In this document: positions 48,586-50,768 of the stretch, piece after piece
Layout: each line of letters starts with the position of its first letter
Position numbering within the stretch: position 1 is the first letter of the stretch
DNA from: Escherichia coli
GTDB taxonomy: Bacteria; Pseudomonadota; Gammaproteobacteria; Enterobacterales; Enterobacteriaceae
Assembly (NCBI RefSeq): GCF_003991155.1
Contig: NZ_CP031293.1
Strand: one strand, 5' to 3'
Length of the DNA stretch: 64,000 nucleotides
The notes under the pieces: model-generated
The model's database searches: none
Seen by the model: only the letters and a program-made list of their open reading frames with translations
What the model was told of the DNA's origin: nothing
Program-made: the position numbers and the translations under genes

Positions 48586-49737
48586 ATGTCACTTGTCACC
48601 GATCTACCCGCTATTTTCGATCAGTTCTCTGAAGCTCGCCAGAAAGGCTTTCTCACCGTCATGGATCTCAAGGAGCGCGGCATTCCGCTGGTTGGCACTT
48701 ACTGCACCTTTATGCCGCAAGAGATCCCGATGGCAGCCGGTGCGGTTGTGGTTTCGCTCTGTTCCACCTCTGATGAAACCATTGAAGAAGCGGAGAAAGA
48801 TCTGCCGCGCAACCTCTGCCCGCTGATTAAAAGCAGCTACGGCTTTGGCAAAACCGATAAATGCCCCTACTTCTACTTTTCGGATCTGGTGGTCGGTGAA
48901 ACCACCTGCGACGGCAAAAAGAAAATGTATGAATACATGGCGGAGTTTAAGCCCGTGCATGTGATGCAATTGCCCAACAGCGTTAAGGACGATGCCTCGC
49001 GTGCATTATGGAAAGCTGAGATGCTGCGCTTACAAAAAGCGGTAGAGGAACGTTTTGGACACGAGATTAGCGAAGATGCTCTGCGCGATGCCATTGTGCT
49101 GAAAAACCGCGAACGTCGCGCACTGGCTAATTTTTATCATCTTGGGCAGTTAAATCCTCCGGCGCTTAGCGGCAGCGACATTCTGAAAGTGGTCTACGGC
49201 GCAACCTTCCGGTTCGATAAAGAGGCGTTGGTTGACGAACTGGATGCAATGACCGCCCGCGTTCGTCAGCAGTGGGAAGAAGGCCAGCGACTGGACCCGC
49301 GTCCACGCATTTTAATCACCGGCTGCCCAATTGGCGGCGCAGCAGAGAAAGTGGTGCGCGCGATTGAAGAGAATGGCGGCTGGGTTGTCGGTTATGAAAA
49401 CTGCACTGGGGCGAAAGCGACCGAGCAATGCGTGGCGGAAACGGGCGATGTCTACGACGCGCTGGCGGATAAATATCTGGCGATTGGCTGCTCCTGTGTT
49501 TCGCCGAACGATCAGCGCCTGCAAATGCTCAGCCAGATGGTTGAAGAATATCAGGTCGATGGCGTAGTTGATGTGATTTTGCAGGCGTGCCATACCTACG
49601 CGGTGGAATCGCTGGCGATTAAACGTCATGTGCGTCAGCAGCACAACATTCCTTATATCGCTATTGAAACAGACTACTCCACCTCAGATGTCGGGCAGCT
49701 CAGCACCCGTGTCGCGGCCTTTATTGAGATGCTGTAA
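48586..49737 (+). CDS. yjiM: 2-hydroxyacyl-CoA dehydratase-like protein YjiM (HgdB/BcrB family component)
   Basis: ORF 48565..49737; product from MSLVTDLPA, 383 aa; adjacent to its putative ATPase activator yjiL. Confidence 0.8.
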   Translation: MSLVTDLPAIFDQFSEARQKGFLTVMDLKERGIPLVGTYCTFMPQEIPMAAGAVVVSLCSTSDETIEEAEKDLPRNLCPLIKSSYGFGKTDKCPYFYFSDLVVGETTCDGKKKMYEYMAEFKPVHVMQLPNSVKDDASRALWKAEMLRLQKAVEERFGHEISEDALRDAIVLKNRERRALANFYHLGQLNPPALSGSDILKVVYGATFRFDKEALVDELDAMTARVRQQWEEGQRLDPRPRILITGCPIGGAAEKVVRAIEENGGWVVGYENCTGAKATEQCVAETGDVYDALADKYLAIGCSCVSPNDQRLQMLSQMVEEYQVDGVVDVILQACHTYAVESLAIKRHVRQQHNIPYIAIETDYSTSDVGQLSTRVAAFIEML

Positions 49738-49746
49738 GGAGTGGCA

Positions 49747-50514
49747 GTGGCATATTCGATTGGCATTGATTCCGGCTCAACCGCCACCAAAGGGATCTTA
49801 CTGGCAGACGGCGTGATTACGCGCCGTTTCCTCGTTCCAACACCCTTTCGCCCGGCAACAGCAATTACTGAAGCCTGGGAAACTCTGCGCGAAGGGTTAG
49901 AAACAACGCCGTTTCTGACGCTCACCGGCTACGGGCGGCAACTGGTGGATTTTGCCGATAAACAGGTGACGGAAATCTCCTGTCACGGGCTGGGCGCACG
50001 GTTTCTTGCGCCAGCAACGCGCGCAGTAATCGACATCGGTGGTCAGGACAGCAAAGTGATTCAGCTTGATGATGACGGTAACCTGTGCGATTTCCTGATG
50101 AATGACAAATGCGCGGCGGGCACCGGGCGTTTCCTGGAGGTGATCTCGCGCACGCTTGGCACCAGCGTCGAGCAACTCGACAGCATTACTGAAAATGTCA
50201 GACCGCACGCCATCACGAGTATGTGCACAGTGTTTGCCGAATCAGAAGTGATCAGCCTGCGCTCAGCGGGCGTCGCGCCAGAAGCGATTCTCGCCGGAGT
50301 GATTAACGCGATGGCGCGGAGGAGTGCCAATTTCATTGCTCGTCTCTCCTGTGAAGCGCCGATTCTGTTTACTGGTGGCGTTAGTCATTGCCAGACGTTT
50401 GCCCGGATGCTGGAATCTCACCTGGGAATGCCGGTAAATACCCCCCCTGATGCGCAATTTGCTGGCGCAATTGGCGCGGCGGTAATTGGTCAACGAGTGA
50501 GGACACGCCGATGA
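49747..50514 (+). CDS. yjiL: BadF/BadG/BcrA/BcrD-type ATPase (activator of 2-hydroxyacyl-CoA dehydratase-like enzyme, HgdC-like)
   Basis: About 255 aa; N-terminal acetate/sugar-kinase-fold motif IGIDSGSTATKG; Cys-containing region. Confidence 0.82.
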   Translation: MAYSIGIDSGSTATKGILLADGVITRRFLVPTPFRPATAITEAWETLREGLETTPFLTLTGYGRQLVDFADKQVTEISCHGLGARFLAPATRAVIDIGGQDSKVIQLDDDGNLCDFLMNDKCAAGTGRFLEVISRTLGTSVEQLDSITENVRPHAITSMCTVFAESEVISLRSAGVAPEAILAGVINAMARRSANFIARLSCEAPILFTGGVSHCQTFARMLESHLGMPVNTPPDAQFAGAIGAAVIGQRVRTRR

Positions 50515-50768
50515 AAGAGTTTTTATTTTTATTTCACTCCACAGTCGGCGTCATACAAACCCGCAAAGCGTTGCAGGCAGCGGGCATGACTTTTCGCGTC
50601 AGCGATATTCCCCGTGATTTACGCGGCGGCTGCGGGTTATGCATTTGGCTGACCTGTCCCCCCGGCGAGGAAATACAATGGGTGATCCCTGGGCTGACTG
50701 AGTCAATTTATTGTCAGCAGGATGGTGTCTGGCGCTGCATTGCACATTACCGGGTTTCTCCGCGTTAA
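50511..50768 (+). CDS. Small Cys-containing protein, DUF3343-like (putative sulfur/selenium-carrier-like), translationally coupled to yjiL
   Basis: 85-aa ORF; ATGA start/stop overlap with yjiL; pattern [41 protein letters not shown] resembles DUF3343. Confidence 0.5.

Follow-up and report, generated by a model that had tools for sequence, protein, structure and literature searches.

The Escherichia coli yjiM-yjiL-ytiA locus probably encodes an anaerobically expressed, ATP-driven reductase of the double-cubane cluster protein type

The 64,000-nt stretch of Escherichia coli DNA analyzed here (contig NZ_CP031293.1 of RefSeq assembly GCF_003991155.1; hereinafter, the window) contains three tightly packed, co-directional open reading frames (ORFs), yjiM, yjiL, and ytiA, at positions 48586-50768 on the plus strand, where a first-pass annotation had placed a three-gene module. 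yjiM (48586..49737, +) encodes 383 aa from an ATG start with its own upstream GGAAGGA; the longest ORF would begin at GTG 48565, and the annotated start is ATG 48586 instead. yjiL (49747..50514, +) encodes 255 aa and begins 10 nt past the yjiM stop. An alternative GTG start is located at 49741. The Shine-Dalgarno sequence AAGGAG (49736-49741) abuts GTG 49741 and lies 5 nt upstream of GTG 49747, and because of this spacing GTG 49747, which is also the RefSeq start, is favored. ytiA (50511..50768, +) encodes 85 aa, and its ATG forms an ATGA overlap with the yjiL stop, the classic sign that ytiA is translationally coupled to yjiL, as had been claimed for a small Cys protein at this position. The 115-bp intergenic spacer between yjiN and yjiM (48471..48585) is presumed to contain the promoter of the yjiM operon.

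yjiM-yjiL-ytiA is a core E. coli locus. The 2.5-kb stretch that holds it is 100% identical to several E. coli chromosomes, including that of E. coli 2016C-3878, and the locus is present at no less than 80% coverage, with annotated yjiM, yjiL, and ytiA, in 5371 of 5426 complete E. coli genomes. RefSeq labels the products "double-cubane-cluster-containing anaerobic reductase" (yjiM), "putative 2-hydroxyacyl-CoA dehydratase activator YjiL" (yjiL), and "DUF3343 domain-containing protein" (ytiA). The module is therefore not new as such: RefSeq annotation and literature from 2020-2023 already cover it, and the first-pass annotation was right in outline, with YjiM filed one level too coarsely.

The domain matches of all three proteins are far beyond chance, and profile searches define the family of YjiM. 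It matches Pfam HGD-D (PF06050) with E=7e-122 and NCBIfam NF040772, the equivalog model of the double-cubane cluster protein (DCCP; "cluster IV" of Dobbek), with 530.4 bits (cut-off 350) over profile positions 1-372 of 372. NF040772 was built in the Haft preprint, which lists YjiM of K-12 as a member. The models of dehydratases and of benzoyl-CoA reductases (BCRs) score far under their cut-offs, namely HadC (94.6 bits, cut-off 700), HadB (20.4 bits, cut-off 750), BzdN (77 bits, cut-off 453.8), and BcrC (58 bits, cut-off 421). The best solved relative is the DCCP of C. hydrogenoformans (DCCP_Ch; 6ENO and 7YYL), which aligns to YjiM residues 26-383 with E=7e-75, followed by BzdN (1.5e-18), MbdN (6.5e-18), and then HadC, these next matches ranging from 1e-18 to 1e-13.

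The DCCP signature is a motif of seven cysteines, six of which are ligands of the [8Fe-9S] cluster while the seventh is a neighboring Cys (PMC7317905). In YjiM the corresponding residues are C40, C59, C78, C108, C273, C302, and C335. All seven have a Cys counterpart in 6ENO. An alignment of 28 diverse family members shows these same cysteines, and no others, to be invariant, and none of the 80 orthologs and paralogs collected from genomes (see below) departs from them. C93 is nearly always conserved too. The spacing, X18-X18-X29-X164-X28-X32, is slightly tighter than the published pattern; a literal regular expression of the published seven-Cys spacing finds no match in YjiM, as its linkers are slightly shorter, while the aligned positions do match. 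A survey based on AlphaFold predicted only "a 4Fe-4S site" in YjiM.

Only one PF06050 ORF occurs in or near the module, and a paralogous partner subunit was not seen there. Judged from profiles and motifs, YjiM is best classified as a DCCP-family protein and not as a subunit of a 2-hydroxyacyl-CoA dehydratase. The earlier proposal that YjiM resembles a dehydratase component thus holds for the superfamily (HGD-D/BCR/dehydratase) and fails for the family, which is DCCP. The label "radical 2-hydroxyacyl-CoA dehydratase-like" is not retained, in view of the single catalytic gene, the seven-Cys motif, and flanks that contain no CoA-transferase or fermentation genes; nor do CoA-transferase or amino-acid fermentation genes recur in the 80 ortholog loci described below.

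YjiM is shorter than DCCP_Ch at the N terminus. Residue 26 of YjiM aligns to residue 62 of 6ENO, and the segment of ~36 residues found in DCCP_Ch-like sequences is missing in YjiM and its nearest relatives, which show a gap relative to family representatives P0295, P0299, P0310, and P0321. Jeoung, Martins and Dobbek (2020) designated short DCCPs that lack the channel-closing N-terminal helices "class II" and named YjiM as a putative example (PMC7317905). Consistent with that designation, the alignment places YjiM in the short class II form, lacking the N-terminal extension of class I. Because the channel-closing helices are missing, the substrate of YjiM may be larger than the small molecules reduced by DCCP_Ch in vitro.

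YjiL had been proposed to be an ATP-dependent activator of the BadF/BadG/BcrA/BcrD type, and that proposal is correct. It scores 365.6 bits against TIGR00241 (acyl-CoA dehydratase activase domain; cut-off 125.4) and E=1.5e-75 against Pfam BcrAD_BadFG (PF01869); the class I BCR models BzdQ (161 bits, cut-off 380) and BcrA (134 bits, cut-off 578) are missed. Its matches in the PDB are HadI (4EHT, 9.5e-54), HgdC (1HUX, 6.8e-53), and DCCP-R (7YYL_E, 4.6e-48). The motif IGIDSGSTATKG is present as described. In alignments to the solved activators, the phosphate-binding motifs GIDSGSTATK and DIGGQDSK are conserved, and so are the cluster cysteines, located in NDKCAAGTG and CTVFAESE (aligned to HadI and HgdC). 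By these matches YjiL is classed as an ATP-dependent [4Fe-4S] electron injector, that is, a DCCP-R or "archerase".

YtiA matches PF11823 (DUF3343, "putative Se/S carrier protein-like") with E=4.5e-13 and 48.9 bits (gathering score 25). A highly conserved Cys has been noted in DUF3343, and the Se/S carrier name is itself a prediction (PMC5322559). Across 30 diverse homologs, start Met aside, only F8, C41, and G42 of YtiA are invariant. P34 and R35 are conserved in at least 90% of the same members, and C41 is located in a P-R-x5-C-G loop. The second Cys of what appears to be a CxxC motif is an enterobacterial peculiarity. Within Enterobacteriaceae, YtiA is 52-84% identical, compared with 86-98% for YjiM, and so evolves faster; the motif G-C-G-L-C is nevertheless kept. 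An AlphaFold2 model built with the 30-sequence alignment reached a mean predicted local distance difference test score (pLDDT) of 91.3, compared with 55 for a single sequence. The predicted fold is beta-alpha-beta-beta-alpha-beta-beta, ferredoxin-like, and places C41 in a long loop that joins strands 2 and 3. Searching the PDB sequences with YtiA returned nothing significant, and a solved homolog was not found. One invariant Cys on a loop predicted to be exposed would fit a carrier of the persulfide or perselenide type.

An oxygen-sensitive enzyme in a facultative organism is an apparent paradox, and FNR control answers it. FNR directly activates yjiML (PMC3688515), whose expression rises as O2 runs out in O157:H7 cultures (PMC2241611) and, under Cu/Ni stress, drops like that of the FNR regulon as a whole (PMC12724342). 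Published data therefore largely cover the anaerobic expression check that had been suggested for the module. Published chromatin immunoprecipitation (ChIP) data show FNR binding upstream of yjiM, with no mapped transcription start in the peak. Scanning 47900-48620 for the FNR box TTGAT-N4-ATCAA gave no good box and no match with fewer than 3 mismatches. The only FNR-like element of the yjiM spacer, GCGAGAGAGATCAA at 48499-48512, has 3 mismatches and one good half-site. Because of this result, FNR control is credited here to the published ChIP and expression data and no site is claimed. An A/T-rich, -10-like TAATAAT is located ~25 nt downstream of GCGAGAGAGATCAA; a sigma-70 scan found nothing in the yjiN-yjiM spacer.

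We consider it likely, with a probability of about 0.8, that yjiM-yjiL-ytiA specifies a low-potential reductase that is of the DCCP type in both architecture and mechanism, has two components, is driven by ATP, and is expressed anaerobically. Gene structure, family membership, motif conservation, and synteny are established by the present data, and FNR control by the literature. Cluster type, electron flow, and any substrate are inferred, as follows. Specifically, by homology to the C. hydrogenoformans system, YjiL would form a homodimer with an inter-subunit [4Fe-4S] cluster on Cys124 and Cys162 (numbered from GTG 49741). With MgATP bound, it would dock on a YjiM dimer, and ATP hydrolysis would push an electron uphill to a double-cubane [8Fe-9S] cluster, for which six of the seven conserved cysteines of YjiM would serve as ligands and at which the substrate would be reduced. 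YtiA would most likely carry or present a Cys-bound S or Se species (on Cys41) to or from the enzyme.

The genomic context of orthologs bears on the substrate. A full-library HMMER search gave 372 representatives at E<=1e-30, and a scan of ~100,000 species genomes yielded 80 loci with full-length YjiM orthologs (53-96% identity) from Enterobacteriaceae, Hafnia, Aeromonas, and many Firmicutes (Clostridia, Lachnospiraceae, Enterococcus, Listeria). In these loci ORFs were called and clustered by BLAST, DUF3343 genes were detected with a hidden Markov model (HMM), and representatives were named with NCBIfam. The activase (DCCP-R) gene adjoins the DCCP gene in 53 of the 80 loci, and natural DCCP-activase fusions occur (P0265, P0282, P0337, P0366). 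In each of the eight gammaproteobacterial loci that extend far enough, the activase gene is followed by a DUF3343 gene that overlaps or abuts its end. Beyond the module, gammaproteobacterial loci have no conserved gene; yjiN was found in 5 of the 80 loci and mdtM in 2, the latter near yjiM only in the closest enterobacterial loci. One initial DUF3343 candidate, L012_11524, was rejected as a false positive on an out-of-frame ORF, the HMM having been contaminated by an over-long ORF from L015; the counts are unaffected.

Among the 71 non-gammaproteobacterial loci, 13 have a DUF3343 gene within 10 kb (59 of all 80 loci have none at that distance), and 10 have curated selenium-metabolism genes, namely those for YedF, SelD, LysR_Sec, or YqeB/YqeC. 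YqeB and YqeC belong to the selenium-dependent molybdenum hydroxylase system. The YedF call is well above threshold (TIGR03527, 214 bits, cut-off 110), and the selenium-associated LysR regulator NF040786 is above its cut-off in four loci. Three members of the "LysR_Se" cluster were excluded from the selenium count, one in L012 that belongs to another family and two from Listeria that reach 170 bits (cut-off 250). DUF3343 or a curated selenium marker occurs in 15 of the 71 loci, and the number rises to 23 if Csd/Sec-lyase-like aminotransferases and MtaA-like/corrinoid/RACE sets are also counted.

Close YjiM orthologs (53-66% identical to YjiM) are encoded in operons of which the following are representative. 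The gene order is LysR_Sec > Csd-like > YedF > DUF3343 > DCCP > DCCP-R in L076, and YqeC > YqeB > YedF > SelD > DCCP > DCCP-R > MocA in L027 and L051. In an Enterococcus locus (L031) the order is DCCP > DCCP-R ... XdhA-like > MocA > Csd-like > SelD > YedF > DUF3343 > YqeC > YqeB. Also recurrent near YjiM orthologs are the PatB C-S lyase, a cysteine-desulfurase-like aminotransferase, and Mlp methyl-S/Se-transferase sets. In the "PatB" cluster, true PatB C-S lyases are mixed with the MocR-type regulator YjiR of enterobacterial loci, and those loci were not counted as having a C-S lyase. By a rough estimate, the chance that a single-copy gene falls within +/-10 kb in a genome of ~3 Mb is <1%; because chance placement is so rare, we regard the enrichment of selenium genes near YjiM orthologs as real, with the qualification that the loci are not phylogenetically independent.

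These observations extend earlier ones on DCCP, DUF3343, and selenium to the E. coli orthogroup specifically. In the Haft preprint, 955 of 970 DCCPs were in SelD-positive genomes; in Slackia, DUF3343 adjoins activase and HGD-like genes (PMC5322559); and DCCP has been drawn among putative selenium genes (PMC10418091).

Several Firmicutes have, near the gene for the YjiM ortholog, one for a further and longer DCCP paralog. These paralogs comprise 424-453 aa (ORF calls), are 35-38% identical to YjiM, and keep the seven cysteines, and in L040 (6732-8373), L043 (2987-4541), L075 (5328-6907), and L077 (5916-7462) each directly adjoins a DUF3343 gene. Because DUF3343 also adjoins such long, class-I-like paralogs, the DUF3343-DCCP pairing is general and is not tied to the lid-less form. 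The idea that the missing lid of YjiM admits the YtiA loop was dropped, since DUF3343 pairs with long, lid-bearing DCCP paralogs too.

Other loci show further arrangements around the DCCP gene. In L050, L059, L072, L084, and L086, genes for MtaA-like methyltransferases, a corrinoid protein, and a RACE-type corrinoid activase are located within 10 kb of it. RACE and DCCP-R are encoded side by side at such mlp-type loci, which therefore specify two different ATP-driven reductive activators. The sets correspond to the "type I mlp gene clusters", which have been proposed to act in methyl-selenide or methyl-sulfur metabolism and which Kountz and Balskus tied to methyl-selenide metabolism (PMC10418091). 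In Clostridium sulfidigenes and a relative (L019, 5442-7610; L021, 11462-13630), no activase gene adjoins the YjiM ortholog; a conserved ORF of 722 aa follows it instead, and upstream, in divergent orientation, is a gene for a PatB C-S lyase. Two family representatives appear to be fused to regulatory domains, P0242 (722 aa; DCCP with a C-terminal PucR-type helix-turn-helix) and P0350 (629 aa; DCCP with an FHA domain). These fusions could be sensor-type proteins or gene-call artefacts.

The area of metabolism in which we tentatively place the substrate is selenium or sulfur trafficking, for example the conversion of Se(0)/perselenide-type species to selenide for SelD, a preference held at clearly less than even odds. 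The neighborhood data support, and do not prove, such a role. In its most specific form, which we regard as doubtful, YjiM-YjiL-YtiA would be an FNR-induced, ATP-driven selenium reductase that feeds selenide to SelD. Cys41 of YtiA would collect Se(0), a perselenide or selenotrisulfide, or an organoselenium fragment, and the YjiM cluster would reduce it to selenide below the reach of ordinary cellular reductants. The selenide would then pass to SelD while anaerobic E. coli makes its formate-dehydrogenase selenoproteins. This version is attractive in that the Se(0)/HSe- couple is very negative, probably near -0.7 V at pH 7.

Several observations weigh against the interpretation. For the module as a whole, the cluster type and activity of YjiM, YjiL, and YtiA are inferred only; DUF3343 also pairs with long class-I-like DCCPs, so YtiA does not explain the missing lid of YjiM. 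As to selenium, the loci, which as noted above are not phylogenetically independent, include many Lachnospiraceae and Clostridia, and in 56 of the 71 loci from outside the gammaproteobacteria the 10 kb around the DCCP gene contain no DUF3343 and no curated selenium marker. The gammaproteobacterial loci carry no selenium gene besides DUF3343, and there the module stands alone. Classical screens for selenoprotein deficiency in E. coli gave selA-D and are not known to have hit yjiML, and the module therefore cannot be essential for selenocysteine synthesis from selenite. Moreover, Lin et al. could discern no subfamily of DUF3343 specific to selenium, and organisms that lack SelD can have DUF3343 as well (PMC5322559).

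Four other explanations were weighed, each of which is without contextual support. The first, which is the view of the first-pass annotation and the suggestion of Dobbek for class II, is that YjiML acts on CoA esters, as an atypical 2-hydroxyacyl-CoA dehydratase (HAD) or an acyl- or aryl-CoA reductase, with YjiL activating it once or at each turnover. The absence from YjiM of the N-terminal helices that narrow the DCCP_Ch channel fits this proposal, as does the membership of YjiM in one superfamily with HadBC and BzdNO, and BzdN is a precedent for CoA-ester chemistry served by an [8Fe-9S] cluster. However, characterized dehydratases and class I BCRs all need a substrate-binding paralog with an open [4Fe-4S]-OH2 site, while YjiML has a single catalytic gene; every HAD and BCR equivalog model scores far under its cut-off; and among the gene clusters present in at least 4 of the 80 loci there is no CoA-transferase, acyl-CoA ligase, thioesterase, or beta-oxidation-like gene. 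We consider CoA-ester chemistry unlikely.

YjiML could instead be a nitrogenase-like reductase of small molecules (azide, hydrazine, hydroxylamine, or acetylene- or cyanide-type compounds) that serves detoxification or scavenging under anoxic conditions, the presence of YtiA being incidental. DCCP_Ch with DCCP-R, MgATP, and dithionite does reduce acetylene, hydrazine, and azide in vitro, and yjiM is FNR-co-regulated with the nitrite- and NO-handling genes nir, nrf, and hcp (PMC12724342). The field itself, however, doubts the physiological relevance of the DCCP_Ch reactions (PMC11971306), YjiM lacks the narrow channel architecture, and it is S/Se genes, not nitrogen-oxide or nitrile genes, that recur near orthologs in the 80 loci. 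This explanation is also improbable.

It is quite unlikely that YtiA is a maturation factor that supplies the bridging sulfide (or selenide) to fuse two cubanes in an enzyme whose substrate has nothing to do with Se or S. Such a role would suit the single invariant Cys on the predicted exposed loop and the fact that DUF3343 adjoins short and long DCCP paralogs alike, and the Haft preprint lists a selenium-bridged cofactor as a formal possibility for the DCCP-SelD correlation. Yet most of the 80 DCCP loci (59) have no DUF3343 within 10 kb, the bridge in the solved DCCP_Ch cluster is sulfide, and DUF3343 is widespread, occurring also beside YedF/Sec-lyase genes where no DCCP is described (PMC5322559). 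Finally, it is very improbable that the module works with MdtM to take up proline-rich antimicrobial peptides (PrAMPs) or to set the susceptibility to them: a review (PMC8801401) that draws "MdtM/YjiL" as an accessory route states, citing Krizsan et al. 2015, that the yjiL-mdtM cluster influences PrAMP activity in sbmA-deficient E. coli, but YjiL is predicted to be a cytoplasmic Fe-S ATPase without transport features, mdtM is beside yjiM in only 2 of the 80 loci and yjiN in 5, and the published effect may be polar or indirect.

In E. coli the module is surrounded by yjiN (DUF445), mdtM, yjiK, and yjiJ. The product of yjiK has an SdiA-regulated domain (PF06977, E=3.7e-94). Its RefSeq start is at 50833; the longest yjiK ORF (50722-51693) would overlap the final 47 nt of ytiA. 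A convincing terminator was not found in the gap between ytiA and yjiK, and co-transcription of the two is therefore possible. Elsewhere in the window, a 318-aa Rpn-family recombination-promoting nuclease/putative transposase is encoded between yjiR and mdtM (44494-45450, -) as a single intact ORF in this strain. GC content falls sharply to 0.30 at 57500-57999, which coordinate mapping identifies as the yjiC-iraD intergenic region; annotated there are the idlP leader peptide and two tiny hypothetical coding sequences.

The first-pass annotation had called the physiological substrate uncharacterized, and this agrees with the literature, which in 2022 and again in April 2025 still listed DCCP function as unknown (PMC11971306 for 2025). 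DCCPs are regarded as the archetype of the superfamily of benzoyl-CoA reductases and dehydratases and have a nitrogenase-like cofactor, and no physiological role has been assigned to any of them. Among the members, E. coli YjiML-YtiA lends itself best to genetics, and its substrate can be sought with standard tools. If the link to selenium is true, the module would represent a new class of ATP-driven reductases tied to selenium assimilation in gut bacteria; were it a selenium reductase in the specific sense above, it would supply a missing step in selenide provision and the first physiological function of a DCCP.

The closest known system is DCCP/DCCP-R of C. hydrogenoformans (CHY_0487/CHY_0488; 6ENO, 7YYL), in which, as in YjiML, one catalytic gene is followed by a gene for an ASKHA-type [4Fe-4S] ATPase. 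The seven motif cysteines and the NCBIfam equivalog family are common to DCCP_Ch and YjiM (E=7e-75 for YjiM; 4.6e-48 for YjiL). In contrast to DCCP_Ch, YjiM is ~36 residues shorter N-terminally and has no channel-closing helices, and the E. coli module has a coupled downstream DUF3343 gene, a facultative host, and FNR-controlled expression. HadBC/HadI of C. difficile and HgdAB/HgdC of A. fermentans share the PF06050 fold, and their activators have cluster and ATP motifs identical to those of YjiL. These dehydratases, however, are heterodimers of two paralogs, each with a three-Cys [4Fe-4S] or [4Fe-5S] cluster, and act on CoA esters, whereas YjiM is the product of a single gene with a seven-Cys motif. 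In BzdNOPQ/MbdNOPQ (8S02, 9G87), BzdN likewise has an ATP-fed [8Fe-9S] double cubane (PMC11971306). In these class I BCRs the double cubane is an electron store, catalysis takes place on a second subunit, BzdO, and there are two different ATPase subunits; thus class I BCR has two ATPases and two catalytic paralogs, while YjiML has one gene of each kind. Lastly, the YedF/DUF3343/SelD/LysR_Sec neighborhoods (Lin et al. 2015; Haft and Gwadz 2022-23; Kountz and Balskus 2023) are related to the module through YtiA, a DUF3343 protein, and close YjiM orthologs are encoded within such neighborhoods in 10 of the 71 non-gammaproteobacterial loci. Unlike those neighborhoods, the E. coli module and the sampled gammaproteobacterial modules stand alone, away from selD and yedEF.

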